Below are positions 28,494 through 51,414 of a stretch of 64,000 nucleotides of DNA, piece after piece. The notes beneath the pieces were generated by a model, which saw nothing but the letters and a program-made list of their open reading frames with translations, did no database searches and was not told where the DNA came from. A program made the translations under genes and the position numbers. Numbering within the stretch: position 1 is the stretch's first letter; every line of letters begins with the position of its first letter. Source of the DNA: Candidatus Falkowbacteria bacterium (GTDB lineage Bacteria; Patescibacteriota; Patescibacteriia; CAIXNZ01); the NCBI GenBank assembly GCA_963774955.1, contig CAVZGV010000004.1, positions 296,716 through 360,715 on the forward strand, given 5' to 3'.

Positions 28494-28769
28494 ATGACTC
28501 TCAAATCCGCGCATTTTTCTCAAAAACTGACAATCACCTTGTTAGTTTTTTTATTTATCTTTTCCCAGCCTGGCATTTTGCTGGCGGCCGAAGAAGCTGT
28601 AAATGACAATACCGTTTCGGTTAACACGACCGAATCCCCGGCCGAACCGGCCACTGACACTTCAGCTCAGCCGGCTGTAACTCCTGAAACACCGACAGCC
28701 CAGACGGTTCAGATCAGGCTACGGCTGATGCGGTCAAAGCTGACACGGAAACGCCAGATCAAGGCATGA
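28494..28769 (+). CDS. signal-peptide-bearing N-terminal segment, probably the true N-terminus of the giant RHS protein separated by a frameshift
   Basis: Signal peptide MTLKSAHFSQKLTITLLVFLFIFSQPGILLAAEE plus a PT-rich linker. The last 20 residues (RLRLMRSKLTRKRQIKA) look out of frame. The giant ORF frame upstream of its ATG reads linker-like sequence (DGSDQATADAVKADTETPDQG). Confidence 0.4.
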   Translation: MTLKSAHFSQKLTITLLVFLFIFSQPGILLAAEEAVNDNTVSVNTTESPAEPATDTSAQPAVTPETPTAQTVQIRLRLMRSKLTRKRQIKA

Positions 28770-31700
28770 ATACTTTAGACAGTTCCGGAGGAGAGGTGTA
28801 CGGAGACGTCTCCAATATTACTGATTCGCCCAAAACCAATAAATCAAATTTGGAAGTTGATCAGAACTCTGGTGCCTTATTATATAAATACCCGATACAA
28901 GTTCCTCCGGGCAGAAACGGCCTGCAACCTGACTTGGCTTTGAGTTACAATAGTCAGGATTTAAAATACGACAGTGAATTCGGTTATGGCTGGGGTATAA
29001 CTATTCCATACATTGAAAGGTTGCTTAAAAAAGGTATTGATAAGGCGTATACTGAAAATTATTTTACATCGTCTTTGAGCGGAGAATTGGAAGATGTTAG
29101 TTTGAGCGATGGGCATCACGGCACTTATGGCGCTAAAGTTGATAGCGGAGATTTTCTTAAATACGAGTTTAATACCAGTAACTATTGGTTGGTAACCGAT
29201 AAAAAGGGGACTGTGTACAAATTTGGATACAATGCTTCAGCTCGCCAGAATGATCCTAGTGACAGCTCACATGTGTTTAAATGGATGTTGGAGGAAGTCC
29301 GCGATACCAATAATAATTACATTAAATATGAGTATTATAAAGATAATGGTCAGATTTATCCCTCGGCGATAAAATATACCGGCTATAATACGACTGACGG
29401 AATTTTCGAAATAGATTTTTTAAGAGAAAGCCGGAGCAATGACTACGTTTCTTATAAAGAGGGTTTTGAAGCAACAACTGGTTATAGGATTTATGAAATC
29501 CAGGCCAAAGTTAGTGGGACATGGGCTAGAAAATATGAGCTGGACTATACGGCATCAAGTGAAAATGATTGGCAGGAATTATTAACTTCTATAACTGAAA
29601 GTGGCAATGACGGTAGTCAGACAATCAGTTTACCAGTTACTACGTTTACTTACCAAACGAATGGAGGATACGTTTTTTATACTCAGGATCAGAATGTTGA
29701 TTTTCCAACTAAAGCATATAATGCGATGTGGAACGGTCATGCCAGCAACGGCACTTTTTCAACTGATGCAAATGGCGACGGCCTATCCGATATTGTCCAA
29801 TATAAAGTAGGTTATACAAACTGCCAATATTCTTTAAGCAGAAGTTTTTTAAGTAACGGGAACGGTTGGGATGAATCAAGTGAATGGACTTCATTTAATT
29901 TAGCTAAAGAACAATATTGCCATAGTAATGGAGATTTTAGCGTATATTTAAGACCTGCGATTTTTATCGATATAAACGGAGATGGTTTATCTGATTTTGT
30001 GAAAAGTGGAATTAGATTAAATAACTCTGCTAATCAAGACTATGTAAGTATCAGCTGGAATATTCCCTTATCATTAACCGATGCCAATGGCTATGGAATT
30101 CAAGACTACGTTCATCTTGGAGATTTTAACGGCGACGGACTAGTTGATTATTTTGCTAAATATTACATAAATGGAAATTGGCATATGGATATTATGCCCA
30201 ATTTAGGTAATGGCTGGTATGTTGATAATACTTGGAGTTTCCCAAGTTATCTGAGCGATGGCATAATTTATAATCACGGCATTAAATTCGCGGATATTAA
30301 CGGTGATAGCCTGGACGATATATTGGTATCGCAGAATGATGACCAATACGGGACAATAAGAAAAGTATATTTAAACACCGGTGCCAAAAGTTGGGCGGAA
30401 ACAACTGATTTTACAATTTCTAGCAGCCTTGTTTTTTTTATCAGGCATACAAATCCCGATCAAAATATGGTTATGCCTATAGAATTTAATGATCTAAACA
30501 AGGACGGTTTAACTGATGTTATTTATGACGAGAGTGTTTATATAAATGACGGTTCGACCTTTATTGATACTACTGATATTACCTCTTTTTATAGCCCTTA
30601 TTTTGGTCAAATCTCCGGCCGAAATTTCATGGAAATAAACGGAGATGGTATGCCCGATTATTCCATATCCTCCAAGTCAGGCATTGATGAATCATATTGG
30701 GTCGGTTCCCAATATGAAAATTCAGAAGATTTAAGTAGTATTTCTAAATCGGTGTATATTAATCAAAAAAAGCCTTCGGGATTATTGATAGGTGTTGAAA
30801 ATTCCAAAGGCGGGTCAATGGAAGTTACTTACAAAGGTTCGGGTGAATACAAAGGTAGTAATGATAATTTACTAAATCCGCATTTGCCGGTGATTGTCCA
30901 GACCGTCTCCCAGATCACCTACAATGACGGCCTAAATAATTCATGGTCGGAAAATTACCAGTACGCCAACGGTGAATACTATTTTTCTGACTACCTGAAT
31001 CGCAAGCTGGCGGGATTTGGTTTGGTGACAAAGACTGATGCGGGAGGGAATGTTACGAAGTCATATTTTCATCAGGGGAATACTACTGACTCAAGTCATG
31101 GCGAATATTCTGATGATGTTTCCAAGATCGGCAAGGTTTATCGCGCAGAAGTTTATGATGACTCGGATAACTTATATTCAAAGTCCATTAATAAATGGGA
31201 AAATTATGATTTGGGGAATGACAGGGATTTTGTGAAGTTAACGCAAACGATTAGTTTTAGTTATGACGGTAATACAAGTCATAAGGACAAGGCTGAAACT
31301 TACACTTATGACAATGCGACCGGCAATTTGACGCAGAAAGTTACCTGGGGCGAGGTGACGGGTTCGGATAACGGCACGTACACGGACACCGGAACGGATA
31401 AATTTACGACTGATATAGACTATGCGGCCACTACGGGTAGCGCAGTCATTGGCTTGCCAAGCCAGGAGACGACTGAAGATCAAAGCAGTAATAAAGTTAA
31501 GGAAACCAAGTATTATTATGACAGTCTGACTTTGGGCAATGTGGATAAAGGCAATCTGACCAAACAGGAAATGTGGAAATCAGGCACCAGTTATATTGAT
31601 GTTGAAAAGACATATAATTCTTACGGCATAGTTACCCAGGAAAAGGATCCGCGCGATAAGACAACGGATTATACTTATGATTCATATAATTTGTATCCGG

Positions 31701-34700
31701 CGACTGTTACTAATGCGTTAGACCTGGATACTGATTATGAATATGATTATTCTTCAGGCAAGCCGACCCAGGTGACTGATCCTAATGGGCGGGTGTTTCA
31801 GACAGTTTATGATGCCCTGGACAGGGTAAAACAGGAAAAACAGCCGGATTTAACCACGCCGAGTACTTTGGTGGTTAAAACTGAATATACATACACTGAT
31901 AATACCGTACCGAGCAAAGTTCAGCAGACAAATAATCTGGATTCTTCAACGAGTTTTGATATTTATACTTATCTTGACGGTTTTGGACGAAAAATTCAGG
32001 AAAGAAAAGAGGCCGAGGCTTCAAATACATTTAGTGTCAAAGATTTTGCTTACAATGACCTTGGCCTGGTGGACAGGGAATCTTTGCCGTACTTTTCGAC
32101 CGGCACATCCAGAACAACCGCCACCACTGATAATTCGCTTTATACCAGTTACACTTATGATCCTTTGCAAAGAGTCGCCACCTCAACTAATGCAGTTGGC
32201 ACCACCACGAATACTTATGACGACTGGAAACTGACCATTACTGACGCGGAAAGCAATGTTAAGGATTTGTACAAAGATGCTTATGATAATTTAGTCCAGG
32301 TTGATGAACATAATGACTCAAGTACCTATACCACGACTTACGGGTATAATGGTCTGGGAAATTTATTAAATATTACTGATTCTCAGGATAATGTCAGGAA
32401 TTTTACTTATGACGGACTTGGCCGCAGATTAACAGCCGAGGATTTGCATGATCCTGAAGACGAATATTTTGGCGAGTGGACGTATGGTTATGATGATTCA
32501 GGTAATTTAACTTCCAGAACTGACCCCAATTCCCAGACAGTAAACTGGACTTATGATGATTTGAACCGCGTTTTGACTGAGGATTACACGGGTCAAAGCG
32601 GAACCGAAGTGGCTTATGTTTATGACACTGGAACGGACGGAATTGGCAGGCTTTATACGGCCACAACACCTGACGTGGTTACGACTCATACTTACAATCC
32701 GCTGGGCGGAGTGAAAACTGAAAATAAATACATTGATTCAACCAATTATCTGACCGAGTTTGCTTATGACCGCCAGGGAAACCAGACCTTGATTACTTAT
32801 CCGAGCGAAGATGAAGTTAAATACGAATACAACACGGCCGGGCTTTTGGAAAAGATTCAAAATAAACCAGCCGGTGAACAGTCTTTTACAGACCTGGTCA
32901 GCGATTATGATTATTCGCCTTTGGAGCAGGTAACTTATCAGGAAGACGCCAATGGCGTTAAAACCTTTAATACTTATGACGAGCAAAAATTGTACCGCCT
33001 AAAAGAGAAAATCACAGCCAGTCCGGATGAAGGTGATTATGGTGAAGGGATGTTTAATATGGCAATGGCTGTCCCGAGCGCAGGTGTCATTCAGAGCGGT
33101 AGCGAAGAATCCATTGCCCCCGCCACAACCGGAATCCTTTCAGCGCTCGGCGTTACTGCGGATTCGCCGTTGACGAGCGCAGGTGTCATTCAGAGCGATA
33201 GCGTGGAATCCATTGCCCCCGCCACAACCGGAATCCTTTCAGCGCTCGGCGTTACTGCGGATTCTCCCTTAACCCCGCTCATAAACAGTGTAACCATGGC
33301 TACGGAAAGTTTAGGTCTGGTTAAGGATCCTCAAATAGAACCGTTACCGGTTAAGCCTGGGGAAAAAGTCCAGCGGGATTTCCTCGGCCGGCCGGTTGAT
33401 TATTCCAATTATCCCAAAGATACCACGGTTTACATTAAAACAGATCCAAACGCCAAATCTCAGGAATTGCCTAAAGAAGCGATTGAAGCCTATGATAAAG
33501 CGGCTGCCAAGCCTCAACCCGAGCCTGAATTAAAGACTTTATTGCCCCAGGAGGCTGTTGATTATTACAACAGTCAGGCTCAAACATCACCAGGCGACGG
33601 CTCCATGATGCTTTTGGAAAGCGTTAATCCACCTAATCCGTCAACGAATTTACAAACTGAAAATTTATGGAAAAGCGACAATATAATCTACAATTCCGGT
33701 TTTGAAGACGGATTTGCATACTGGCAGTGGCAAAATAAGCAGGGCGATACGCATACGGAAGATTGCACAGTTTCCTACAGCGGTTCCTGTTCGGAAAAAG
33801 TTACCATTGCCACTTCAGGTAATTTTTGGGAAACCCAAGTTTACCAGGTTTTAAGGCTGGATGAGAATATTAATTACAAACTGCGTTTTAAGGCCAAAGC
33901 TTCAACAGCCATCACATTTAGCCTGGAAGCCGTGCAAAACCACACGCCATTCAATGACCTGGGCTTGTGGAAAGGGGATTTAAGCATTGGCACTGACTGG
34001 CAGGAATACGAATATACTTTTACTGCTTTGGCAAGCGATCAGGACGCCAGAGTAACCTTTTATCTGGGCGCCAATGCGGCAGATTACTGGTTTGACGATA
34101 TTGAACTCATACCCGATGCTCTCAATATGCTGAAAAATACCAGTTTTGAAAACAATCTTGATAATTGGGAATTTTATGATTACAACAGCACCAGCGAAAA
34201 TACCCGAGACTGCGCAGAAGCGTCTGACGGCGACTGCAATAACAAGGTGGAAAATATGCAGAGCGGTGAATGGTGGCAGGTTTCCCTTAACCAGCCGATT
34301 TCAGTGGTGGCTGACCAGACCTATATTCTGACGTTTTACGCTCATTCCAATTACGATACTCGAATAGCCAAGGTGGCAATCGCCAAGAATTACAGTCCCT
34401 GGACTGATTTGACCGCCATTGCCGAATTTCACACCAACTGGAACGGCGGTTTTGCCAAATACCAGATTGAGCTGACCCCGAACGCCACTGAAAGCAACGC
34501 CCGCCTGATCTTTTATCTGGGCGATGATCAGGGCTGGATTAAGCTGGACAGTCTGCGCTTATGGCCTCAGCAGGCGACTAAGGTTTCAGATTCAACCCCT
34601 GAATTCTCCGCGATTTATGATGATCCGGATTCCGGGGATTATGCAACAGATTACCAGATACAATTAATCAAATATGATGGGAACTGGTCGAACCCCATCT

Positions 34701-36454
34701 GGGATAGTGGGAAGACATCGTTTAATTCTAACGTTTTAGAAGGTAACAGGACTGAAGACATTATTTATGACGGCGACGCCTTGCCTTTGGACGGCATGAA
34801 ATACAAGTGGCGCATCAAGTTATGGGACGAGTCGGATAATGAGGGTGTCTGGACTAATGGCGAGGACTTTTTCATTATGAATGGCAAGCGGATTCAGGAT
34901 TTAAGTTACACCTACGATGATGTGGGCAATATTACGCAGATTATTGACGAGTCTGAAACCAACACGAAGAAAGCCGCCAACTACGCTTATGATGATTTAT
35001 ATCGCTTAACATTGGCCACAATTACGGATTCCGCGACTGATGAGGATTACACTCAGACGTACACTTATGATTCATTAGGTAATTTTACAGACAGGTCAGA
35101 TGTCGGGGATTATGATTATGACGGCAATACCGGGACAAGTTATGCCAATCCGCATGCGGTTACCAGCGTACAGAATGACGCAGTAGCCATAAACTATGAT
35201 CATAATGGTAATTTAACCAGTGAGATTTTAAGCCAGTATCAATGGACGATCTTTGAGGCGGAGTGGGATTACAATAACCGGATGATAAGTTCAGGAGGCT
35301 GGTCAGCAGAAACCGTGTACAGCTATGATCACAGCGGGCAGAGGATTGTGAAGGACACCGGCGATGAATATAGCGGTATTACTACTATTTATGCGAACAA
35401 GTACTACAACGAGCGGACGAACAAGGAAACGTCGGAATTGACCAAGACATTGAATATTTATGACAATAAAGGGAATTTAGTTGCTACGGGCGAAGAAGTC
35501 GGAGAAACTAGTAATATTTATTACGTAAATGGTGACCATTTGGGAAGTTCCAGCGTTATGACGACTGATACAGGGGACATGGAACAGGTGGTTGACTATT
35601 TTCCGTATGGAAATATGCGGTTTAATGAGCAGAGAGTACAAAATGAAAGCTATGATCAGAAGGAAAAATTTTCCGGAAAAATTTTCGATCAGGATGCAGC
35701 TGGGTTGTCATATTTCGGAACCAGGTACTATTCTGGTGAAGCAGGGAAGTTTATTAGTGAGGATCCTGTGTTTTTAGCAGTTGGTGATAATGAAAATATA
35801 AAAAGGTTAGCAAGAATTGAATTACAGCAGTATTTATCCAATCCGCAGATAATGAATAGTTATTCATATTCCTATAACAATCCTTTGATTTATAAGGATG
35901 GTGATGGTAACTTTGCATTTTTGATCCCCATTGCTGCTTATGCAGTCGCTACTGCACCAGTATGGGTACCAGCAGTAATTACCTGGTCTGCCGCCACTAC
36001 TTTAGCCATTAGCACACCACTTGTCGGGGGACAAATATATTCATATGCTAAAGGAGATAATGCAACTGGGAATCAGATGGGTGATGTCGCGATGGGGGTT
36101 ATGGGGATTGAGGCAGGTGTAGCTGGCGGTATTATGTCCATAGATAAAATGTTGAGTTCATCTTATAATAAGCCGGCAAATAGAACAAAATCTAACAGTA
36201 AATCAGCCCCCCTTTTTTCAAGTCATGCACAAATGCGTATGGAGCAAAGAGGAATTTCGATAGATCAAGTTAAGAATGTAATGGAAAATAATAAACCATT
36301 TAATTATTATCACGAAAATAATTGGAAAACTGGGTATTATGATCAATCTAGTAAAGTATTCGTCGCACAAGCAAATGAAAGTGGGCAGGTCATAACCGTA
36401 ATAAACGATGTAAGTCCGCAATATATTAGTAATTTACAATCACTAAAACCATGA
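28766..36454 (+). CDS. giant TcB/TcC-like RHS-repeat polymorphic toxin (2562 aa): SpvB N-domain, FG-GAP repeats, RHS/YD repeats, 2 CBM4/9-like modules, RHS core, DUF4258-like C-terminal toxin
   Basis: SpvB-like LYKYPIQVPPGRNGLQPDLALSYNSQ...GYGWG. Six DxNGDGxxD FG-GAP repeats. Many YD repeats. NSGFEDG...W CBM-like modules. RHS core YYVNGDHLGSSSVMTTD...DYFPYGN...RYYSGEAGKFISEDP. C-terminal HAQMRMEQRGISIDQVKNV... resembles DUF4258. Confidence 0.85.
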   Translation: MNTLDSSGGEVYGDVSNITDSPKTNKSNLEVDQNSGALLYKYPIQVPPGRNGLQPDLALSYNSQDLKYDSEFGYGWGITIPYIERLLKKGIDKAYTENYFTSSLSGELEDVSLSDGHHGTYGAKVDSGDFLKYEFNTSNYWLVTDKKGTVYKFGYNASARQNDPSDSSHVFKWMLEEVRDTNNNYIKYEYYKDNGQIYPSAIKYTGYNTTDGIFEIDFLRESRSNDYVSYKEGFEATTGYRIYEIQAKVSGTWARKYELDYTASSENDWQELLTSITESGNDGSQTISLPVTTFTYQTNGGYVFYTQDQNVDFPTKAYNAMWNGHASNGTFSTDANGDGLSDIVQYKVGYTNCQYSLSRSFLSNGNGWDESSEWTSFNLAKEQYCHSNGDFSVYLRPAIFIDINGDGLSDFVKSGIRLNNSANQDYVSISWNIPLSLTDANGYGIQDYVHLGDFNGDGLVDYFAKYYINGNWHMDIMPNLGNGWYVDNTWSFPSYLSDGIIYNHGIKFADINGDSLDDILVSQNDDQYGTIRKVYLNTGAKSWAETTDFTISSSLVFFIRHTNPDQNMVMPIEFNDLNKDGLTDVIYDESVYINDGSTFIDTTDITSFYSPYFGQISGRNFMEINGDGMPDYSISSKSGIDESYWVGSQYENSEDLSSISKSVYINQKKPSGLLIGVENSKGGSMEVTYKGSGEYKGSNDNLLNPHLPVIVQTVSQITYNDGLNNSWSENYQYANGEYYFSDYLNRKLAGFGLVTKTDAGGNVTKSYFHQGNTTDSSHGEYSDDVSKIGKVYRAEVYDDSDNLYSKSINKWENYDLGNDRDFVKLTQTISFSYDGNTSHKDKAETYTYDNATGNLTQKVTWGEVTGSDNGTYTDTGTDKFTTDIDYAATTGSAVIGLPSQETTEDQSSNKVKETKYYYDSLTLGNVDKGNLTKQEMWKSGTSYIDVEKTYNSYGIVTQEKDPRDKTTDYTYDSYNLYPATVTNALDLDTDYEYDYSSGKPTQVTDPNGRVFQTVYDALDRVKQEKQPDLTTPSTLVVKTEYTYTDNTVPSKVQQTNNLDSSTSFDIYTYLDGFGRKIQERKEAEASNTFSVKDFAYNDLGLVDRESLPYFSTGTSRTTATTDNSLYTSYTYDPLQRVATSTNAVGTTTNTYDDWKLTITDAESNVKDLYKDAYDNLVQVDEHNDSSTYTTTYGYNGLGNLLNITDSQDNVRNFTYDGLGRRLTAEDLHDPEDEYFGEWTYGYDDSGNLTSRTDPNSQTVNWTYDDLNRVLTEDYTGQSGTEVAYVYDTGTDGIGRLYTATTPDVVTTHTYNPLGGVKTENKYIDSTNYLTEFAYDRQGNQTLITYPSEDEVKYEYNTAGLLEKIQNKPAGEQSFTDLVSDYDYSPLEQVTYQEDANGVKTFNTYDEQKLYRLKEKITASPDEGDYGEGMFNMAMAVPSAGVIQSGSEESIAPATTGILSALGVTADSPLTSAGVIQSDSVESIAPATTGILSALGVTADSPLTPLINSVTMATESLGLVKDPQIEPLPVKPGEKVQRDFLGRPVDYSNYPKDTTVYIKTDPNAKSQELPKEAIEAYDKAAAKPQPEPELKTLLPQEAVDYYNSQAQTSPGDGSMMLLESVNPPNPSTNLQTENLWKSDNIIYNSGFEDGFAYWQWQNKQGDTHTEDCTVSYSGSCSEKVTIATSGNFWETQVYQVLRLDENINYKLRFKAKASTAITFSLEAVQNHTPFNDLGLWKGDLSIGTDWQEYEYTFTALASDQDARVTFYLGANAADYWFDDIELIPDALNMLKNTSFENNLDNWEFYDYNSTSENTRDCAEASDGDCNNKVENMQSGEWWQVSLNQPISVVADQTYILTFYAHSNYDTRIAKVAIAKNYSPWTDLTAIAEFHTNWNGGFAKYQIELTPNATESNARLIFYLGDDQGWIKLDSLRLWPQQATKVSDSTPEFSAIYDDPDSGDYATDYQIQLIKYDGNWSNPIWDSGKTSFNSNVLEGNRTEDIIYDGDALPLDGMKYKWRIKLWDESDNEGVWTNGEDFFIMNGKRIQDLSYTYDDVGNITQIIDESETNTKKAANYAYDDLYRLTLATITDSATDEDYTQTYTYDSLGNFTDRSDVGDYDYDGNTGTSYANPHAVTSVQNDAVAINYDHNGNLTSEILSQYQWTIFEAEWDYNNRMISSGGWSAETVYSYDHSGQRIVKDTGDEYSGITTIYANKYYNERTNKETSELTKTLNIYDNKGNLVATGEEVGETSNIYYVNGDHLGSSSVMTTDTGDMEQVVDYFPYGNMRFNEQRVQNESYDQKEKFSGKIFDQDAAGLSYFGTRYYSGEAGKFISEDPVFLAVGDNENIKRLARIELQQYLSNPQIMNSYSYSYNNPLIYKDGDGNFAFLIPIAAYAVATAPVWVPAVITWSAATTLAISTPLVGGQIYSYAKGDNATGNQMGDVAMGVMGIEAGVAGGIMSIDKMLSSSYNKPANRTKSNSKSAPLFSSHAQMRMEQRGISIDQVKNVMENNKPFNYYHENNWKTGYYDQSSKVFVAQANESGQVITVINDVSPQYISNLQSLKP

Positions 36455-36681
36455 AAATCACTTATGACAAATCTATAGATGCGGTATACATATATTTAAT
36501 TCCTAATCAAAGAATCCACCCGGGATGGTCTAAAAAAACTTATCCTTGTGACCCCAAAGAAGTAAATGGCATGATTAATTTAGACTTTGATAATAAAGGT
36601 AGGCTGGGTGGGATTGAAATAATTGGAGCTAGTCAAAAATTACCAAAAGAAATTATCGATTCAGCTGAAGTTATTGGTTAG
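36451..36681 (+). CDS. DUF2283-like immunity/antitoxin protein (cognate to the DUF4258 toxin tip)
   Basis: MKITYDKSIDAVYIYL...INLDFDNKGRLGGIEIIGAS matches the DUF2283 pattern. ATGA overlap with the toxin stop. Confidence 0.6.
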   Translation: MKITYDKSIDAVYIYLIPNQRIHPGWSKKTYPCDPKEVNGMINLDFDNKGRLGGIEIIGASQKLPKEIIDSAEVIG

Positions 36682-36789
36682 TCCACAGTAATCGGTTTAG
36701 TTTTCATAAATACTGATAAATAGAGTTGTTCAAAATAGAATGAGTAAATAGCTAAGTTCTTTTAAAACTTAACAATTTAATTAATTTAA

Positions 36790-38605
36790 CCAATTACAAT
36801 TAATCAAATATGACGGGGCGTGGTCGAACCCTGTTTGGGACTCTGGCAAAACAAGTTTTACAAGTTCAGTTTTAGAAGGCGATAGGACGGAGGATATTGC
36901 GTATGACGGCGATGCATTGCCTTTGGACGGCATGAGGTACAATTGGAGGATTAAGCTGTGGGACGAATCTGATAATGAGGGCGAGTGGACCAATGGCGAA
37001 GATTTTTTCATCATGCAGGGCAAGAGAATTCAGGATTTGAGTTATACTTACGATGACGTAGGGAATATAATGCGAATAGATGACCAATCGGAGACAAATA
37101 CCAGGAAAACCGCTGAATACGAATATGACGAATTATATCGCTTAACCAGCGCCACAATTACCGATTCCGCCACTGAAGAAGATTACACGCAGACTTATAC
37201 GTATGACAGCTTGGGCAACTTTACTAATCGTTCCGATGTCGGTGATTATGAGTATGAGGGCAATCAGGGAACCAACTATGCCAATCCGCATGCGGTTACC
37301 AGCGTACAGAATGATGCAGTGGTCATAAACTATGACCATAATGGCAATCTGTTGTCAGAAATTATTTCTGGGTATAACTGGACAATATTTGAAGCCGGGT
37401 GGGATTATAATAACCGGATGATAACAAGCGGAGGTTGGTCAGCAGAAACCTTGTACCGCTATGATCACAGCGGGCAGAGGATTCTAAAGGATACCGGCGA
37501 TGAATATAGCGGCATTACGTCCATTTATGCTAATCAGTACTACAACGAGCGGACAAATAAGGAAACATCGGAATTGACCAAGACATTGAATGTGTATGAC
37601 AACAAAGGTAATTTAGTCGCCACCGCAGAAGAAGCCGGTGAGACAAATAATCTTTACTATGTGAATGGTGATCATTTGGGAAGTTCCAGCGTGATGACGA
37701 CTGACGAGGGTGAGCAAGAGCAGGTGGTTGATTATTTCCCGTTTGGGAATATGCGGTTTAATGAGCAGAGGATACAAAATGAAAGCTATGATCAGAAGGA
37801 AAAATTTTCCGGAAAAATTTTCGATCAGGATGCCGCGGGGTTAAGTTACTTTGGGGCGAGATACTATTCGGGGGAGGCCGGGAAGTTCATTAGTCAGGAC
37901 CCTGTATTTTTAGCAGTTGGGGATGGTGAAGGTTATAAGAAATTGACTAATTTTAAATTTGAACTTTATCTTTCCAATCCCCAATTACAAAATTCCTATG
38001 CGTATGCAGCTGATAATCCTTTAAAATTTATTGATACAAAAGGCAATATTGCTGAAACAGTCTGGGATGCCGGATGTGTAGCATTTGACATTGGTAGCTA
38101 CTTCCATAATGAGTTGAAAGCTGTTGGTGCTTTATTCCGAGGCGATCTTAGTGGCGCGGTCAATCATACAAACGAAGCAATGGGCTTTCTGTTAAATCTC
38201 GGAGTAGATACTGGGTCTGCTATGATCCCTTTTGTTCCCGCTGGGTTATCGCATGTTGATGATGCGGCTAAAGCGACATCATTAGTTAGACAGAACTGGG
38301 CTAAGGGTATGCAGTTTGAGAATAAAGTCTTGAATTTATTGGGAGAATCTAAAAACACTCAAAAGATTTCTACTCAATTTGGTAATGTGATACCTGATAT
38401 TTATAATAAGGCAGGAAATATTATTGGTGAGATAAAAAATACTGCGTATGCATCCCTAACAAATCAATTTAAGGGTATTTTAGAAATGGTAGAAAAAGGG
38501 AAATCCCAATTTACATTATATGTAAATCAAAATACTAAAATTTCTGGGCCGTTACAAAAAGCGATAGATACCATTAAAGGAACAGTACAAAGAATAACTC
38601 ATTGA
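36790..38605 (+). CDS. orphan RHS-core cassette with alternative C-terminal toxin (PD-(D/E)xK nuclease-like); longest ATG-ORF is 36917..38605
   Basis: About 90% identical to the giant gene's 3' region from the junction caattaatcaaatatgacgggg onward. The tail diverges after NPLKFIDTKGN, with IPDIY...GEIK suggesting a REase fold. Confidence 0.65.
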
Positions 38606-38632
38606 ACTTTAAAAATTTGATATTTTAAATAT

Positions 38633-39592
38633 ATGAAATTTATTGTGTTAAATATATATACCTTAATTGATATTAGAAAGGAGGAAATCGCTAAAAAGTT
38701 TTACAAATTAATTGTTAAATATGGTTATACGCCTGACAAAATTGGCATTGTTGAACCTTTGAAGAAGACATTTAATGTAAGTAATTTGGCTGATACTATA
38801 AATATGTGGATGCATACAGATTCTGAAAAATATCATACCTTTAGTGGTACTGTTATACTATTAAAGAAAAAACCTCGGATTTTATTCATGGCTCATTGGA
38901 TTAAGGGAAAGAATGCGGAATTCAATTGGGTATCAATAGATATTTCTGAAAGATTTTTAGCTAATGGCACGGAACTGAATAAATTTATTAAATTTATTAA
39001 TGAAATGTATAAATTATTCAATCCAATATTAATATATAGTAGCCATGATGATGTTAAAGAACAACAAATTAGAATAGTTACTGTTGATGAACGTGGTTGG
39101 GAGAGCTCAAGAATAACAGGTACGATAATTGAATGTATCCCTGGTATTTTCTGGTTGAATTATTTCGGGCCAGTTTTTGTGGATTTTGTAGGCCGCGATA
39201 AATTTAAAAATGCACCTTGCTATAAAAAGGAAGAAATGCCCGATGGGGGATATATGCTAATGACGGCAGAGGATCCATTTAATCCAAATGACCAAATGAA
39301 AAGAAAAGCGGAACAGGATTTAAAGGAATATTTTGGGTTAGAGTATTTTGGCAACCCAAAACAGCCTGGCAAAAAATGCAAAATGCCCGATTTTGACTTT
39401 AGTGATCTTAGAGGCGATTATAAAGAATTAACTCCTGAAGAAGAAAAGAACCAAATTTTAGAGCATTTTAAGAAAACAGGGCTTGAATTGGTTGAAGAGG
39501 AAGGCGATGGCACTTTAGTCTTTAGGAGTAAAAGAGGCAAACACGATATCGTAAAATTTAAAAAAGGAAGTATTGATTATTTTAAAAAGTAA
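38633..39592 (+). CDS. hypothetical protein, putative immunity protein for the preceding orphan toxin
   Basis: Position immediately 3' of the toxin module. 319 aa, no recognisable domain. Confidence 0.4.
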   Translation: MKFIVLNIYTLIDIRKEEIAKKFYKLIVKYGYTPDKIGIVEPLKKTFNVSNLADTINMWMHTDSEKYHTFSGTVILLKKKPRILFMAHWIKGKNAEFNWVSIDISERFLANGTELNKFIKFINEMYKLFNPILIYSSHDDVKEQQIRIVTVDERGWESSRITGTIIECIPGIFWLNYFGPVFVDFVGRDKFKNAPCYKKEEMPDGGYMLMTAEDPFNPNDQMKRKAEQDLKEYFGLEYFGNPKQPGKKCKMPDFDFSDLRGDYKELTPEEEKNQILEHFKKTGLELVEEEGDGTLVFRSKRGKHDIVKFKKGSIDYFKK

Positions 39593-39598
39593 CAAAAT

Positions 39599-42500
39599 AT
39601 GTCTAAACTCAAAATTTGGTTGGGTACCATTTTATTTGCCATAAGTAGCATCCCGAATATTTCTTTGGCAAATATTTCTGATGGGCAAATCAATCTTGAT
39701 AAAACTGATTTTTTTGAAATCGGGTATGTTTTTGCTGGAAACGAGCCAATAGCATTAGTTCTATCAGAGAAGAAGGATGCGGAATTTAAACAACTAATAG
39801 TCCTTCCAGAACAAAAGGTTCAGCACGACTTTCTCGGACGTCCTGTTGATTACCAGAATTACCCCCAGGACAAAACAGTGTATCTGAAAGCTGATCCTAA
39901 TGTTAAGCCCCAAGCCTTGCCCAAAGAGGCGATTGAGTCGTTTGATAAGGCGAGCGAGAAATGGAACCAAAAGCCGGAGTTAAAGACATTGTTGCCCCAG
40001 GAGGCTGTTGATTATATGTCCAAGCAGGAAACAGCCAAGGGTATGAATATGCTGCTTTCAGGTACTCCGCCTAATCCGTCCACTAATTTGAATTCCAATG
40101 ATTTATGGCTGAGTCAAAATTTAATCACCAATCCGGGCTTTGAAGACGGGTTTAATAACTGGAGCTGGCAGAATAAACAGGGGGACACGCACCAGGAAGA
40201 CTGCACGGTTTCATACAGTGGCAGTTGTTCGGAAAAGGTTTCAGTTGCCTCAGCCGGTAATTTCTGGGAAACCCAGGTCTTTCAGGTTTTAAGATTAGAT
40301 CAGAATACGGATTATAAACTGCGCTTTAAGCTTAAGGCGTCAACAAGCGCAAGTTTTTCACTGGAAGCGGTGCAAAACCACACGCCGTTTAATAACTTGG
40401 GCTTATGGAAATACCAGCTGACCGCAAGTACTGACTGGCAGGAATACGAATTTTATTTTAGCGGACTGGCAACTGATCAGGATGCCAGACTGACCTTTTA
40501 TTTGGGTGAAAGCGCCGCTGATTATTGGTTTGACGACATAGAATTGATTCCTGACAATTTTAACCGCCTGAAAAACCCGAGTTTTGAAAATGGTACTACG
40601 AGCTGGGATTTTTACATCTACTCTCAGGGACAGGGCACTTTAAGCACCGATACAGGCGCCATGCCTGACGGCAATACAGCCGCCAAAATAGACTTTACCG
40701 GGGCAGGAGAAAACTGGGAAGTCAATCTGGCCCAGGGAATAGGGGCAGTAAGTTCGGCTAAGACTTATGCGGTTACCTTTTACGCCCGTTCTTTTTATCA
40801 GAACCGGCTGGCTTATGTGGCTCTGGCGCAGAATTATAGTCCCTGGTCAGATTTGACTGATGAGGTAGAATTTACAGCTACGCCTGACTGGCAAAAGTAT
40901 GAAATAGATTTTACTCCAAGTTCTTCGGATTCCAATGCCCGGGTAATTTTCCTGCTGGGTACTGACACGATCAGCATTGAGTTTGACGACATTCATGTCT
41001 TTGAAAAACAGGTGACCAGGTTTGACACTGAACCCACTTTTAGCGCGATTTACGATGATCCGGATTCAGGGGATTATGCAGAATATTACCAAGTTCAAAT
41101 AATAAAGTATGACGGGGCCTGGTCGAACCCCGTCTGGGACTCTGGCAAAACAAGTTTTACAAGTTCAGTTTTAGAAGGCGATAGGACGGAGGATATTGCG
41201 TATGACGGCGATGCCTTGCCTTTGGACGGTATGAAGTACAACTGGAGGATAAAGTTATGGGACGAATCTAATAATGAAGGCGCCTGGACTAATGGCGAAG
41301 ATTTTTTCATCATGAATGGCAAGAGGATTCAGGACTTGTCTTATTCGTATGACAACGTTGGCAACATTGCCCAGATAATTGATCAATCGGAGACAAATAC
41401 CAGAAAAACCGCTGAATTACGAATATGACGAATTGTATCGCCTAACGTTCGGCTACGATTAGCGGACAGCTGCGACAAATGAGGATTACACTCAGACATA
41501 TACTTATGATTCTTTGGGTAACACTACTAGATCAGGTCTGATGTAGGCGATTACGATTATGAAGGCAATACAGGTTCAAATTACGCCAATCCGCATGCGG
41601 TAACCAGCGTACAGAATGACGCAGTGGTAATAAACTATGACCAAAATGGAAATCTGATCGACGAAGTTTTAAGCCAGTATCAATGGACTATTTTTGAGGC
41701 GGAGTGGGATTATAATAACCGGATGATAACAAGCGGAGGTTGGTCAGCAGAAACCTTGTACCTCTATGATCATAGCGGGCAGAGGATTCTAAAGGATACC
41801 GGCGATGAATATAGCGGCATTACGTCCATTTACGCTAATCAGTACTACAACGAGCGGACAAACAAGGAAACCTCGGAATTGACCAAGACATTGAATGTGT
41901 ATGACAACAAAGGTAATTTAGTTGCCACCGCAGAAGAAGCCGGCGAGACAAATAATCTTTACTATGTGAATGGTGATCATTTGGGAAGTTCCAGCGTGAT
42001 GACGACTGACGAGGGTGAGCAAGAGCAGGTGGTTGATTATTTCCCGTTTGGGAATATGCGGTTTAATGAAAGAAGCGATGCGGAGAATTGGTCCTTTGAC
42101 GAAAAGAAAAAGTTCACGGGGCATGAGTATGACGCGGACGCCGCTGGCCTTACTTATATGGGAGCACGCTATTATAGTGGAGAGGCGGGTAAATTCATAA
42201 GTCAGGATCCATTATTTTGGATTGTTGGTGATAAAGACTATAATGATATGTGGAGAGAAAAATTATTTTCCCCGCAGTCGTTAAATTCATATTCTTACGG
42301 TCTAAATAATCCGATGATATATTTAGATCCAACGGGTTTAGATAGTGATGTATTTTACACAAAACCTTTCTCATCTCAGGCATCAGCTGAACAAAGTAGA
42401 TTATCTTCAGCATATGGAGAACCAGTGTATATGCATGAAGTTTCAACTGTTAATCAATTTACATCTGCCTGGAATGGTATGGGTAAAAATGGTTCAGATA

Positions 42501-42955
42501 TAGATGAGGTTACTATTCTGTCGCATAGTGATGCGAATAATATTTACTTGAATGGAGATAAAGAAAAACTTACCACAACACCAAATATGTTTAATGTAGA
42601 TCCCAAAACCCTAGGAACCTCAATTGATTCATTAAGTAAAAAAGATATCGGTCAGATAAATTTATATACATGCGAAGGGGGTAATATAAGCCACGCCACG
42701 AATTTAGCCAAAGCCTTTGCTACTTCACAGCAAACTACTGTGATGGGTTTTGATGGTAGATTATCTTTTGTTCCATTTTTAGGAAGTCCCATGTTTTCAC
42801 TTCGAGGGCAATTAAAACATTACAATGAATACGGCAGAGCTCCGTTAGGTTGGGTTACTTACAGTAAAAATGGAAGCTATAGTGTCGGAAATGATTCACA
42901 GCGTCCGCCTTATATTTATAAGTGGATAGGTTATTTTGCTGGTTTTAATAATTAA
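39599..42955 (+). pseudogene. second secreted RHS-like toxin gene (signal peptide + CBM-like modules + RHS core + distinct C-terminal toxin), disrupted by indels around 41400-41620
   Basis: ORFs 39599..41428 and 41624..42955 are colinear with giant protein residues about 1530-2400. Region 41400-41620 has scrambled/indel versions of sequence that is intact at 46908-46990. Canonical NPMIYLDPTGL precedes the toxin tip. Confidence 0.6.
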
Positions 42956-42967
42956 TTAGATATATAT

Positions 42968-43522
42968 ATGGATAATTTAGTCATAAATTTTATATTTTTA
43001 TCAGTGCCTTTATTTGTTTCTGTTTTTATTGTCCTACTAATCTTTACTTTAAGGACATTGAGACAGAAACGAAACATTTATCAAGGTAATATGAAAATGA
43101 AAATTGGGTTGCTTGTTATTATTATAATAATACTAGTTATCCCTTTCCTATATAGTTATTTTGACGGTTTATCGTTAAGGCTGGAATATCTAGGCATGAA
43201 TAAACTAGGTACGGAAAGTCCTAATATGAATTATGGTGATTGGGGTTTTATAAGATCCGAAGAAGAACAAAAAAATATAGAAAATAAATTAGATATTAAT
43301 TTGACCTACGATATAAATTACTCGAAGGAAATGGAACTTGTAAGTTACGGTAGAAAAATTTATAAAATAAATTATAGTTTGTTCTCCAGGTGGTTCAATA
43401 ATAATTTGCCGGTTACAATATTTGCCGACAATAAGAACGAATCGGATAGTATTTTTATTTATAAGGTTGATGATAACTTCTCACCTAGTGAACAGGGCAG
43501 TAGTTATCGAATTAACAGATAG
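42968..43522 (+). CDS. hypothetical membrane-anchored protein (immunity candidate)
   Basis: N-terminal TM segments; AT-rich; located after the toxin tip. Confidence 0.35.
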   Translation: MDNLVINFIFLSVPLFVSVFIVLLIFTLRTLRQKRNIYQGNMKMKIGLLVIIIIILVIPFLYSYFDGLSLRLEYLGMNKLGTESPNMNYGDWGFIRSEEEQKNIENKLDINLTYDINYSKEMELVSYGRKIYKINYSLFSRWFNNNLPVTIFADNKNESDSIFIYKVDDNFSPSEQGSSYRINR

Positions 43523-43569
43523 AGCTTTATTACTCGGTTGTATCAAATAATAATTGTATATATAAAATT

Positions 43570-43920
43570 ATGTTCGACAAAACAAAACAATTCTTCGTTA
43601 ATTTAAAAAGGCCTTATCGTTATTTAGTCTTTATTTTGAGTTATTTCCTGTTGAATCTAATATTATTGATTTTGGCAATTTATATTAAGAGCTTATCCTC
43701 ATCTTTATATGAGATTGTATTCATCTTTTACTTTTTCGCATTATTGTTGATTGTTGCAGCTGTTTTGGGATGGGGATATGTTTTAATGTCGTTATCCAAG
43801 GAAATAAAAGATATGACATTCTTTGCATTAACTATAATCTTAGCGGTTATTTTTTTCATAATTTGGCCTATGATTTTATATTACTTATCGGTTTATGGCT
43901 GGGATGTGTTAAGTGGATAG
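43570..43920 (+). CDS. small multi-TM membrane protein (immunity candidate)
   Basis: Roughly four predicted TM helices in 116 aa. Confidence 0.4.
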   Translation: MFDKTKQFFVNLKRPYRYLVFILSYFLLNLILLILAIYIKSLSSSLYEIVFIFYFFALLLIVAAVLGWGYVLMSLSKEIKDMTFFALTIILAVIFFIIWPMILYYLSVYGWDVLSG

Positions 43921-43953
43921 AAATATTTTAAGAATAATTAATAAAAAAATGAG

Positions 43954-44352
43954 ATGAGGTTTTTTATGTCCGGAGAAGTAAGTGGCGAAGCTCACGAAAA
44001 ATTCAGAGTATTAATGCTCGAAATTGAAAAACAAATTAAAAGTTTGATGAATATTAATGATTATGGGGATGCAGTTTCTGAGATTGCCATAATACCTACT
44101 ATATTTTCCGCTGAATTTTTAACAGCTTTGCCCTATAAAGAACGCAAGCGATTTTCACCTAAAACGAAAGTAGGTGAGTTTAGATTAAGGATAGATTACG
44201 ATAAATTTGTTAAGGCAAACGAAGATAGTAAACGTAGATTAATAGTGCAAAATATTATTGATTCAATCAGGATTCTAAAAACAAAAGTTAAAAAAGGATT
44301 TGATGGCGACAAATTGGAAAAAGATATTAGAGAATTATTCAAAATAGAATAG
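43954..44352 (+). CDS. hypothetical protein (immunity candidate)
   Basis: 132 aa, SD-like GAGATGAGG upstream. No domain recognised. Confidence 0.4.
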   Translation: MRFFMSGEVSGEAHEKFRVLMLEIEKQIKSLMNINDYGDAVSEIAIIPTIFSAEFLTALPYKERKRFSPKTKVGEFRLRIDYDKFVKANEDSKRRLIVQNIIDSIRILKTKVKKGFDGDKLEKDIRELFKIE

Positions 44353-44394
44353 ACGGATAATTCGGTTCTTTTAAAATTAAATAAATTAATTAAT

Positions 44395-46220
44395 ATTACC
44401 AAGTTCAAATAATAAAGTATGACGGGGCGTGGTCGAACCCTGTTTGGGACTCTGGCAAAACAAGTTTTACAAGTTCAGTTTTAGAAGGCGATAGGACGGA
44501 GGATATTGCGTATGACGGCGATGCCTTGCCTTTGGACGGTATGAAGTACAACTGGAGGATAAAGTTATGGGACGAATCTAATAATGAAGGCGCCTGGACT
44601 AATGGCGAAGATTTTTTCATCATGAATGGCAAGAGGATTCAGGACTTGTCTTATTCGTATGACAACGTTGGCAACATTGCCCAGATAATTGATCAATCGG
44701 AGACAAATACCAGAAAAACAGCCGAATACGAATATGACGAATTATATCGCCTAATTTCAGCGACAATTACGGATTCCGCCACAGAAGAGGATTACACCCA
44801 GACCTATACTTATGATTCTTTGGGTAACACTACTTATCGTTCTGATGTAGGCGATTATGATTATGAGGGCAATACAGGTTCAAATTACGCCAATCCGCAT
44901 GCGGTAACTAGCGTACAGAATGACGCAGTGGTAATAAACTATGACCAAAATGGAAATCTGACCGACGAAGTTTTAAGCCAGTATCAATGGACTATTTTTG
45001 AGGCGGGGTGGGATTATAATAACCGAATGGCGACATCAGGAGGTTGGTCGGATTCTGCTGTTTATAAATATGACCATAGCGGACAACGAATATGGCAGGA
45101 GACCGGAGGCCAGTATTATGGCGTAAAAACAATTTACCCGAATAAATACTATAATGAAAGGACGGATAAGTTTCTGGCTGAGACTGTTGACACCTTGCAA
45201 ATATATGATAATAAAGGGCAGTTAATAGCTACCGGGGAGGAAAACGGAGAAACTTCAAATATTTACTTTGTCCATAATGATCATCTAGGTTCTTCCAGTG
45301 TAATGACAAAAAGTGACGGGAATGTTGAGCAGGTAATCGATTACTACCCGTTTGGTGATATCAGATTCAACGAAAGAAGTGATCCTGATAATAATTCCTT
45401 TGACGAGCGCGTCAAGCATTCTAACCATTTGTACGATGACAATACGTCATTAACATACATGGGGGCTAGGTATTACACAGGAGCCGGGGGAAAATTTGCG
45501 AGTCAAGATGAGGCATATTTAGCTGTTGGTAGTAGTCAATTAAGGGATCTAACTAATAGAAGTTTAAGCGAATATTTAGGCGATCCTCAGAATTTAAATT
45601 CTTATACTTACGCACGAAACAATCCTATAATAAATATTGACCCCACTGGCAATTTTTGGTGGTATGGATTTTATAATTGGAGCGGATATAATGGTTTCAG
45701 TGGTTTCATGATGAAGGCGGGGGAAGTTTTAGGCGGTCATAATCGAGCGATGAATGTAATTCAGCAGAATCAAACTATAATAAATGAAACAAGCGATAAA
45801 TATGGGGTTAATCCCAATTTAACCAACGCAATTATTTATGAAGAGCAGTCTCATCTAACTCCAGATGAAGTTGTGGGAAGAGAGCAACTATTGCCTGATG
45901 TAGGGAGTGGTGGCGTGGGTGTAATGCAAGTAAGTGCAAAAGTCGGTGAAGAATTTGGGTATAGTAAAAGTGATTTAGCTCGCGATCCGGTTAAGAATAT
46001 AAATGCGGGAATTCAGAATTTATCTAAAGAGCAGAATGTATCTAATTCAGCAGCAGTTACAGCAAGTAAATATAATAATAGCCAAGCTACTAATATTACA
46101 AATTATGGATTAAGAGTAGAAGCTCAATTAAACAATCCCAGTTATAACCGCAATATTATAACTGATGTTAAGAATTCGGTTTCAGCGATTAAATCACTGT
46201 ATAATTTAATAAGTAAATAA
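44395..46220 (+). CDS. orphan RHS-core cassette with lytic transglycosylase (SLT)-like C-terminal toxin; longest ATG-ORF is 44526..46220
   Basis: Homology to the giant gene starts at ccaagttcaaataataaagtatgacgggg. The tail after NPIINIDPTGN contains IYEEQSHL...GSGGVGVMQVS, an SLT-like catalytic-Glu context. Confidence 0.6.
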
Positions 46221-46221
46221 T

Positions 46222-46563
46222 ATGACTAATAAAAATTCGAAGTTATTTATTATTACAATAGTTACGTTAATTCTTTGGATATTGCCTTTCGTTATTTATT
46301 TCTTTGAGAAAAGTATGGGCTTTTTATCTGATCAGAAAAGTTGGTATGAATTAGGAATAAATCATGGGCCTTGGAGAGGGAGGATAGAAAGTATAATTTT
46401 ATTTTATCCACTTATAGTAGTGGCAATTACTACTCTAATTCTTGCCACACTTCAGATAGTAAGGAAAAATTTTAAGATTTTTGTTTTACTCTTCCTTTTG
46501 TTTATTGTTCAGCTATTATTAATTTTTATCCAAGTATACTTTTTAATTTGGATGATTGATTAA
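46222..46563 (+). CDS. small 3-TM membrane protein (immunity candidate for the SLT-like toxin)
   Basis: ATG overlaps the toxin stop (TAATATG). Confidence 0.4.
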   Translation: MTNKNSKLFIITIVTLILWILPFVIYFFEKSMGFLSDQKSWYELGINHGPWRGRIESIILFYPLIVVAITTLILATLQIVRKNFKIFVLLFLLFIVQLLLIFIQVYFLIWMID

Positions 46564-46569
46564 ATTAAG

Positions 46570-47655
46570 ATGTTTATAAATACCAAATATTACCAAGTTC
46601 AAATAATAAAGTATGACGGGGCCTGGTCGAACCCCGTCTGGGACTCTGGCAAAACAAGTTTTACAAGTTCAGTTTTAGAAGGCGATAGGACGGAGGATAT
46701 TGCGTATGACGGCGATGCCTTGCCTTTGGACGGTATGAAGTACAACTGGAGGATAAAGTTATGGGACGAATCTAATAATGAAGGCGCCTGGACTAATGGC
46801 GAAGATTTTTTCATCATGAATGGCAAGAGGATTCAGGACTTGTCTTATTCGTATGACAACGTTGGCAACATTGCCCAGATAATTGATCAATCGGAGACAA
46901 ATACCAGAAAAACCGCTGAATACGAATATGACGAATTATATCGCCTAACGTCCGCCACGATTACGGACAGCGCCACTGAAGAGGATTACACCCAGACATA
47001 TACTTATGATTCATTGGGCAACACTACTTATCGTTCTGATGTAGGCGATTATGATTACGAGGGCAATACAGGTTCAAATTATGCCAATCCGCATGCGGTT
47101 ACCAGCGTACAGAATGACGCAGTGGTCATAAATTATGACCAAAATGGAAATCTGACCGACGAAGTTTTAAGCCAGTATCAATGGACTATTTTTGAGGCGG
47201 GGTGGGATTATAATAATAGGATGATAACAAGCGGAGGCTGGTCTGCAGATACCGTGTACAGCTATGATTACAGCGGGCAGAGAGTCTTTATGGAAACCGG
47301 TGATGAGTATTCGGGCAAGGTCAATATTTATGCTAATAAGTACTATAGTGAAACAACTGACAAGGAAGCATCGGAACTTACCAAGACTCTGTACGTCTAT
47401 GATAATAAAGGCAATTTAGCGGCCACCGGGGAAGAAAAAGGAGAAACCAGCAATCTTTACTTTGTCAGTGGAGATCATTTAAGTTCGTCCAGTGTCATGA
47501 CAACGGATCAAGGCGAAATAGAGGAAGTGATTGATTATTATCCTTACGGCAATTTGAGGTTTAATGAAAGAAGCGATGCGGAGAATGGGTCCTTTGATGA
47601 AAAGAAAAAGTTTTTGGAAAGATTAATTATTCTTAATATATTAATTAATAATTAA
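46570..47655 (+). pseudogene. truncated orphan RHS-core cassette (no toxin tip)
   Basis: Colinear with the other cassettes but ends ...NERSDAENGSFDEKKKF then junk. Confidence 0.55.
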
Positions 47656-47667
47656 CTTTTCAAAAAT

Positions 47668-48285: not shown

Positions 48286-48289
48286 GATA

Positions 48290-51413: not shown

Positions 51414-51414
51414 C

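Follow-up and report, generated by a model that had tools for sequence, protein, structure and literature searches.

A DUF4258/Ntox49 toxin tip and its DUF2283 partner as the probable toxin/immunity end of an RHS polymorphic toxin

The 64,000-nucleotide stretch of DNA analysed here (the window; contig CAVZGV010000004.1, positions 296,716 to 360,715) contains a giant rhs gene whose C-terminal end, together with a small gene overlapping its stop codon, very probably forms the toxin/immunity end of an RHS polymorphic toxin of the conventional type. To judge from its sequence, the large protein is an RHS polymorphic toxin composed of RHS repeats, a core and a variable tip. The tip is an 80-aa DUF4258/Ntox49 domain for which a BECR fold is predicted, and the 76-aa DUF2283 protein encoded behind it is almost certainly its cognate immunity protein. 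The likely payload of this RHS system would be a colicin-like BECR RNase whose antidote is also identified, and two families named as domains of unknown function are given a concrete, testable relationship. Novelty is limited to a member of the clade in a probable candidate phyla radiation (CPR) genome and to the undocumented but robust pairing of this DUF4258 clade with DUF2283. Otherwise the locus is a textbook rhs island encoding a known kind of inter-bacterial weapon, and the understanding of such systems is unchanged.

An earlier note, made from the sequence alone, had assigned the end of the giant protein to DUF4258 and the overlapping open reading frame (ORF) to DUF2283. Both assignments were confirmed with the hidden Markov models (HMMs) PF14076 and PF10049, which gave family-level hits above the curated thresholds. 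The isolated tip matched DUF4258 in the Pfam scan with an E value of 1.2e-8 and 35.5 bits versus a gathering threshold of 25, and the full-length protein still scored 30.2 bits against the same threshold (aa 2484-2546, approximately nt 36215-36403). The 76-aa ORF matched DUF2283 with an E value of 2.6e-11 and 44 bits versus a gathering threshold of 23, its residues 2-61 covering the full model (1-49). Each family was the sole Pfam match of its sequence at E<=1, and the assignments are therefore far beyond chance. Neither protein had a significant NCBIfam match, and comparison with the PDB by sequence, single or profile, yielded chance-level matches only. The rhs protein ends with ...SSHAQMRMEQRGISIDQVKNV...VITVINDVSPQYISNLQSLKP* (translation of 28766..36454), and the immunity protein (36451..36681) reads MKITYDKSIDAVYIYL...LDFDNKGRLGGIEII...EVIG. 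The ATG of the immunity gene (36451-36453) overlaps the TGA of the rhs gene (36452-36454) as ATGA, so the overlap seen in the earlier note is also confirmed. The interval proposed there, 36200-36681, is right within about 12 nt, as the domain comprises aa 2483-2562 (nt 36212-36451), and the two sequences quoted in that note were found again at their given positions.

Gene order speaks for a cognate pair. Adjacency was examined from both sides, starting from the DUF2283 homologues (n=63, all annotated PF10049) and from the tip homologues, and DUF2283 was found directly downstream, at a distance of 0-25 nt, in 15/15 distinct tip loci from about eight phyla. Three tip homologues on five contigs are each followed by DUF2283 with a 4-nt overlap. 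In eleven tip loci from metagenome-assembled genomes (MAGs) of Bacillota, Deltaproteobacteria, Chloroflexi, Actinomycetota, Elusimicrobia, Acidobacteria and Gemmatimonadota, the DUF2283 gene was recognised by local HMMs 0-25 nt downstream. An RHS protein from Doudnabacteria (L005) ends with a homologous tip followed by DUF2283, and an RHS gene coding for 2778 aa overlaps its DUF2283 gene by 4 nt. This constant position immediately behind all related tips is why we read DUF2283 as the immunity gene. Together with the matches to RHS_repeat and Rhs_assc_core described below, this adjacency bears out the proposal of the earlier note that the giant protein is an RHS toxin and the downstream gene its cognate immunity gene. 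Pairwise identities of toxins and partners were correlated (r=0.42, Mantel p about 0.008), and in the clade basic toxins (median isoelectric point, pI, 8.9) are paired with acidic partners (median 4.6).

DUF2283 had also been called the usual partner antitoxin of DUF4258. This holds for the clade studied here, whereas published work names HicB, MqsA-type proteins and CdiI as partners (PMC4963859, PMC11980606, PMC11630599), and Imm22 was the only immunity family given for Ntox49 in 2012 (PMC3482391). No mention of DUF2283 as a partner of DUF4258/Ntox49 was found in the literature available. In an Anaerolineae MAG (L017 2480-2929; DAOUBF010000001.1), RHS tip and DUF2283 form one continuous ORF (...ENLKSLCYEVTYDPAADTVYIYL...) in which the ATGA is present but out of frame, so that either toxin and immunity protein are naturally fused there or the assembly is wrong by 1 nt. 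A scan for promoters and terminators around tip and immunity gene gave nothing above the shuffled expectation. PADLOC returned no match, and therefore no link to known anti-phage systems.

The AlphaFold2 model of the DUF2283 protein (pLDDT 94.8) predicts a small beta-sheet accompanied by short helices. This model matched no known antitoxin fold, and no structural analogue among known immunity proteins was found with it. The latter result, together with the observation that DUF2283 is better conserved than the toxin (39-72% versus 40-59% identity to the window pair), an uncommon trait in an immunity protein, could speak for an accessory factor such as a chaperone, a stabiliser or an adaptor for cocoon loading. 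We regard such a role as highly improbable. In L004, DUF2283 is the fourth gene of an immunity-type array behind an RHS gene with a different tip, and elsewhere it stands alone in genomes, as immunity genes do. Furthermore, it lacks a signal peptide although the toxin would be exported, the clade partner is acidic versus a basic toxin, and the adjacency is kept in small secreted forms that have no cocoon (L016).

The relatives of the tip were retrieved by an exhaustive phmmer search of 1.84 billion representative proteins, which yielded 315 at E<=1e-3 and 176 at E<=1e-10. Architectures were counted in the best 150 of the 315, or in 151 proteins when the window tip was included. The domain ends no more than 13 residues from the C-terminus in 147/150 of these proteins, whose lengths range from 56 to 2354 aa, and an NPxxxxDxxG RHS-core motif lies upstream of the tip in 48. 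More than 60 residues precede the domain in 112/151 (74%), 11/151 (7%) are short proteins with a Sec signal peptide, and 12/151 are stand-alone proteins of approximately 80 aa. All five long relatives that were scanned have RHS repeats. Two long relatives share the SpvB, FG-GAP, DUF6443 and RHS layout of the window protein, another has PT-TG, and a PT-HINT pre-toxin module occurs in two mid-size relatives. DUF4258 was matched (E<=0.01) by 57/62 clade members at scores of only 20-36 bits, and the clade is therefore a divergent subfamily. A word-index homologue search with the tip alone gave no match, and a genome-contig scan with the single tip gave no relatives; alignment A3 was too diverse for DNA patterns, and the narrower alignment A4 was used instead for the contig scan.

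These architectures bear on the claim of the earlier note that a toxin-antitoxin (TA) module had been recruited as the toxin/immunity pair, and on the sharper alternative that the pair is a genuine type II TA module for addiction or defence, recently captured by the rhs gene, with DUF2283 as a labile autoregulating antitoxin. DUF4258 has indeed been placed among the TA toxins of the RelE/ParE superfamily (PMC11980606), 12 of the 151 proteins stand alone, and free-standing two-gene toxin-DUF2283 modules exist (L011, 87-aa toxin). However, the tip is the C-terminal domain of a larger protein in 74% of the relatives, and the stand-alone forms are scattered with no source clade. Their nearest neighbour is an embedded domain in 9/12 cases, equal to the 74% background, so that they show no clustering and carry no information on direction. 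The 11 relatives with Sec signal peptides would be exported and thus act outside the producer. No DNA-binding domain (helix-turn-helix, ribbon-helix-helix, AbrB or similar) was recognised in DUF2283 by Pfam or in the AlphaFold2 model. In all loci the toxin comes first, with an ATGA overlap, whereas in the DUF4258 TA modules listed by Gerdes the antitoxin precedes the toxin and is of MqsA type, and Ntox49 was defined in 2012 as a polymorphic toxin domain. The window pair departs from type II TA organisation in the same way, with a toxin that is the C-terminus of a 2562-aa RHS protein and a partner devoid of a DNA-binding domain. We therefore consider a captured TA module quite unlikely. Since the tip is C-terminal in 147/150, the long relatives have RHS repeats and Ntox49 has been linked to RHS since 2012, TA recruitment is not supported, and we correct this idea because the clade is primarily a polymorphic-toxin tip, in the great majority located at the C-terminal end of larger exported proteins. 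The data do not show in which direction a recruitment would have gone, and since free-standing two-gene versions exist (L011), the TA reading keeps a low probability.

A further group of relatives (P0080, P0107, P0126, P0148, P0169, P0182, P0210 and L016 2093-2934, the latter from an Elusimicrobia MAG) comprises proteins of approximately 110-125 aa with a Sec signal peptide and the DUF4258-clade domain alone. In L016, DUF2283 is still located downstream of the short toxin. By their sequences, these short forms look like small secreted toxins without an RHS carrier.

The AlphaFold2 model of the tip, built from 62 clade sequences, has a pLDDT of 96.5 and shows two helices (residues 4-13 and 17-26) followed by four strands and a C-terminal helix. 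This corresponds to a predicted BECR fold of colicin-like topology (pre-alpha, alpha, beta1-beta4). In the structure comparison, this model scored 7.6 with the colicin E5 RNase domain, 6.9 with the hypothetical protein 6l7q, 6.4 with colicin D, 6.2 with CdiA-CT O32:H37, 5.3-6.2 with RelE, ParE and YoeB, and 5.4 with BrnT. Foldseek placed CdiA-CT NC101 and colicin E5 on top (probability 0.99-1.0, TM 0.55-0.67). Two independent structure methods thus rank the model slightly closer to colicin E5, colicin D and the CdiA-CT tRNases than to RelE, ParE and BrnT, with a modest margin over the RelE-like proteins. The residues conserved in the clade (H2487, R2491, R2495, Y2514, H2516, K2521, G2523, D2526, T2544 and Y2553) are all intact in the window tip. 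H2487 is conserved in 97%, R2491 in 90% and R2495-G-I in 97% of the clade, which fits the H/[KR] signature and the RG[IV] motif. On the model, H2487, R2491 and R2495 are located on the first helix (pre-alpha) and T2544 on the last strand (beta4).

This arrangement corresponds to what has been described for the colicin-like BECR branch, whose active-site layout involves pre-alpha and beta4, whose characterised members are mostly tRNases, and in which DUF4258 overlaps or roughly equals Ntox49 (bioRxiv 10.64898/2026.08.28.747851). Zhang et al. 2012 described Ntox49 as a polymorphic-toxin domain of BECR fold that has conserved H and [KR] residues and is associated with RHS and HINT (PMC3482391). 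One class of E. coli CdiA-CT toxins is annotated as DUF4258, "tRNase (?)" (PMC11630599), and DUF4258 has no biochemically characterised member (PMC11980606). From the fold and the conserved residues, we predict that the tip is likely an RNase, with a roughly even chance of being a tRNase. The description "RelE/BrnT-like" in the earlier note is correct only at the level of the BECR superfold. Instead of a colicin-like tRNase, one might suppose a ribosome-dependent mRNA interferase similar to RelE, or a gyrase poison similar to ParE. This appears unlikely. None of the RelE, ParE, BrnT, HigB and YoeB families (PF05016, PF06296, PF04365 or related) was matched by the tip in Pfam at E<=1, and because no HMM matched, we do not count it as a member of the RelE, ParE or BrnT families. 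In addition, the modelled pre-alpha helix bears the near-invariant His, Arg and Arg of a colicin-like active site, and colicin E5, colicin D and the CdiA-CT tRNases came out on top in both structure methods.

The carrier of this tip is organised in the order SpvB, FG-GAP propeller, RHS repeats, CBM_4_9-like/Ig insert, terminal RHS repeats, RHS core, hydrophobic pre-toxin segment and toxin tip. In the Pfam scan, RHS_repeat (PF05593) reached 79.7 bits in six stretches and SpvB 63.3 bits, and FG-GAP repeats were also matched; TIGR01643 scored 32.3 bits and Rhs_assc_core (TIGR03696) 38.3 bits versus a cut-off of 32.5 (aa 2278-2381). The core domain ends with NNPLIYKDGDGN, which is aligned to the autoproteolysis motif PxxxxDPxGL in alignment A2. 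The first P, the D and the G of this motif are kept, and DPxGL reads DGDGN (second P to G, L to N). The orphan cassettes described below read NNPMIYLDPTGL and similar at the same motif (NNPxxxxDPTG[LN]). The pre-toxin segment has two hydrophobic Gly/Ala-rich stretches (aa ~2383-2425 and 2440-2458; Kyte-Doolittle maximum 1.65) followed by a polar Ser/Asn/Lys linker, and analogous hydrophobic Gly/Ala-rich stretches lie between RHS core and toxin in relatives. Ahead of the last RHS repeats, the RHS shell is broken by an insert (33300-34650, aa ~1540-1960) that consists of a 32-aa low-complexity repeat present twice (SAGVIQS.SEESIAPATTGILSALGVTADSPLT), two CBM_4_9-like domains and one Ig-like domain. 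The patescibacterial relatives L004 and L005 have an inserted domain at the same RHS position, and the insert may be a receptor-binding module.

A 91-aa ORF, which encodes a Sec-type signal peptide and a linker rich in Pro, Thr and acidic residues, overlaps the rhs start codon at its end as ATGA. Already from 28688, 26 codons ahead of its start, the rhs frame is open, and the stretch 28688-28766 is linker-like. In the closest full-length relative (P0075), signal peptide and linker are in frame and are followed by SpvB at aa 131. The signal-peptide ORF and the open linker-like rhs frame lead us to infer that a -1 frameshift separates the signal peptide from the RHS protein, and 28494..28769 is probably the true 5' end of the rhs gene. 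The frameshift may be real, programmed or an assembly error.

Several points weigh against the interpretation as a functional toxin/immunity end. In the assembly, the signal-peptide ORF and the RHS ORF are in different frames, and the gene product may therefore lack export as assembled. The putative cleavage motif is degenerate, with KDGDGN for DPxGL. The pI values of the window pair (6.9 and 6.5) lie near neutrality and away from the clade medians, and the clade members are known from sequence and predicted structure alone. Lastly, DUF2283 also occurs away from toxins. The closest homologue of the window immunity protein, 84% identical, is encoded on two metagenomic contigs (L001 5001-5237, L002 2050-2286) 8 nt behind mreB, in a neighbourhood that lacks a toxin gene, and is, by its sequence and surroundings, an orphan immunity gene in a housekeeping context. 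L003 and L006 carry solitary copies as well. A gene that is obligatory beside the toxin and found also as an orphan is as expected of a cognate immunity gene. In L003, an IS200 transposase gene adjoins the DUF2283 gene.

Some of these points would also suit a decaying relic, in which the rhs gene has lost its signal peptide by frameshift, nothing is delivered and DUF2283 is kept as orphan immunity against the toxins of neighbours. The -1 frame of the signal-peptide ORF, the broken second rhs-type gene (39599-42955), the truncated cassettes and the IS200 element within the island, and the persistence of DUF2283 genes without toxins elsewhere (L001/L002, L003, L006) are consistent with such decay. 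On the other hand, an ORF of 7.7 kb without any stop is unlikely to last in a pseudogene, every clade-conserved toxin residue is intact, and a single-base frame error in an A-rich, low-complexity metagenome stretch is a common artefact. We consider decay to be a rather unlikely explanation and retain the interpretation as the toxin/immunity end of an RHS polymorphic toxin.

The rhs gene lies directly behind rpoB and rpoC. Reassignment of UGA to an amino acid (code 25, used by some CPR lineages), by which the rhs stop would be read through, was rejected, since rpoB and rpoC are intact and full-length under table 11. A block of approximately 1.1 kb, comprising the end of the Ig domain, the last RHS repeats and the core, recurs 4-5 times downstream of the gene with 77-81% identity in blastn (36789-37924, 41044-42069, 44395-45049 and 46589-47567, and a remnant at 48297-48404), and is likely, on this sequence pattern, a recombination substrate for tip switching. 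On the DNA, the homology to four orphan cassettes, each with a different tip, stops at about 35790, at the core end with the motif NNPLIYKDGDGN, and the tip cassette starts exactly where this homology ends. It follows that the variable cassette of the expressed rhs gene consists of the tip and the immunity gene. The features of the locus and of the downstream cassette array are given in Table 1. The 319-aa ORF of this array is presumed, by its position, to be the immunity gene of the Tox-REase-7 tip. The second rhs-type gene has a signal peptide, two CBM_4_9 domains, an Ig domain, a short RHS region, a core and a tip matching no known family. Its DNA homology to the main gene is continuous over the ORF gap (41044-42069), and thus it is frameshifted or a pseudogene.

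Table 1. Coordinates of the rhs gene, its toxin/immunity end and the downstream cassettes in the window
Feature	Position (nt)	Strand	Basis
91-aa ORF, Sec-type signal peptide and Pro/Thr/acidic linker	28494..28769	+	translation
rhs gene, 2562-aa protein	28766..36454	+	Pfam/TIGRFAM matches
Repeated ~1.1-kb block (Ig domain end, last RHS repeats, core)	34650..35790	+	blastn
RHS-associated core domain, aa 2278-2381	35597..35911	+	TIGR03696 match, alignment A2
Pre-toxin segment	35912..36211	+	hydropathy profile
Toxin tip, aa 2483-2562 and stop, DUF4258/Ntox49, predicted BECR fold, predicted RNase	36212..36454	+	clade alignment and structure model
Immunity gene (almost certain), 76-aa DUF2283 protein	36451..36681	+	Pfam, adjacency
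Orphan-cassette array (rhs C-terminal ends and immunity genes)	36789..48485	+	Pfam, blastn
Orphan cassette, Tox-REase-7 tip	36917..38605	+	
319-aa ORF, no Pfam family, right behind Tox-REase-7 tip	38633-39592	+	
Second rhs-type gene in two ORFs, tip without an assigned family	39599..41428 and 41624..42955	+	
Imm44	43954..44352	+	
SLT-domain tip	44526..46220	+	
Truncated cassette	46570..47655	+	
Imm11	47668..48285	+	
Cassette remnant	48282..48485	+	

The distal end of the island holds a HicB-like ORF without a Pfam match (48538..48822), a gene for a HicA toxin (48828..49058; 37 bits with PF07927) and one for an IS200-type Y1 transposase (49146..49544). A near-identical hairpin of approximately 38 nt with a T-run (AAAAAACACCTCTCGGAAACGGGGG...TTTTTTT) occurs only twice in the window, once immediately behind rpoC (28325-28360) and once immediately behind the IS200 transposase gene (49627-49665). 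These copies flank the rhs island of approximately 21.3 kb and could represent a duplicated rpoC terminator marking its insertion. The region 50200-53500 differs by a G+C content of 49-54% versus approximately 38% in the rest of the window and has long overlapping ORFs on both strands; no Pfam match for these ORFs and no Rfam match were obtained, and this region may be foreign DNA or the product of a chimeric assembly.

On the basis of these data, we hypothesize the following mode of action. The RHS protein is probably exported by Sec and displayed on the surface, where the YD-repeat cocoon would enclose the C-terminal region (aa ~2383-2562). Autoproteolysis at the RHS core motif would probably free this region, and the hydrophobic Gly/Ala-rich pre-toxin segment may help it to pass the membrane of the target cell. 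In the target cytoplasm, the DUF4258/Ntox49 domain would most likely act as a metal-independent endoribonuclease, with tRNA as the most probable substrate and a predicted active site formed by H2487, R2491 and R2495 of the pre-alpha helix and T2544 of beta4, with K2521 and H2516 nearby. The producer would be protected by the translationally coupled DUF2283 protein, which is expected to bind and block the toxin one-to-one. A more far-reaching scenario, which we put forward only tentatively, is that DUF2283 is an unrecognised multi-phylum immunity family for a distinct Ntox49/DUF4258 tRNase clade. The pair would here arm a Sec-exported, CBM-decorated, TcB/TcC-like RHS cocoon in a genome that is presumably patescibacterial (CPR), to judge by where its closest DUF2283 and RHS homologues come from, with the hydrophobic segment as a self-contained device for crossing the membrane of host or competitor, and thus serve an ultra-small epibiont as a contact weapon.

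Compared with known systems, the tip resembles Ntox49/DUF4258 in its Pfam match above gathering, its H and [KR] signature, its C-terminal position after RHS repeats, its relatives behind PT-HINT or PT-TG, and its predicted BECR fold with a pre-alpha helix. In contrast to Ntox49 as described in 2012, its partner here and in all 15 related loci is DUF2283 and not Imm22. By analogy, the window pair would work like the colicin E5, colicin D and CdiA-CT tRNase/immunity pairs, for which we considered the C-terminal tRNase domains of colicin E5 and colicin D with ImmE5 and ImmD, the E. coli CdiA-CT tRNases of NC101 (PDB 5i4q) and O32:H37 (PDB 8ey4), and the DUF4258-type CdiA-CT of strain FHI89. The CdiA-CT systems differ in that they belong to type V (CdiB/CdiA) secretion in proteobacteria and have an N-terminal cytoplasm-entry domain, whereas the window protein has a hydrophobic Gly/Ala-rich segment. 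Moreover, their CdiI proteins are not DUF2283, and some CdiA-CT need EF-Tu as a cofactor. The RelE, ParE and BrnT toxins of type II TA modules differ, with no Pfam match here and another active-site layout, while the window tip is fused to an exported carrier of 2.5 kaa and its partner lacks a DNA-binding domain. A further comparable system is WapA/WapI of Bacillus subtilis, which Koskiniemi et al. reportedly described in 2013 as a Sec-exported, wall-associated tRNase toxin with YD/RHS repeats and its immunity protein. In both, an RHS/YD carrier that has a Sec signal peptide is encoded by a bacterium without an outer membrane, the RHS core is followed by a C-terminal tip of tRNase type, and the immunity gene is the next gene downstream. 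The window locus differs from WapA/WapI by its toxin and immunity families, the TcB-like N-terminal half of its carrier with SpvB and FG-GAP, the CBM/Ig insert, and a signal peptide that is out of frame in the assembly.

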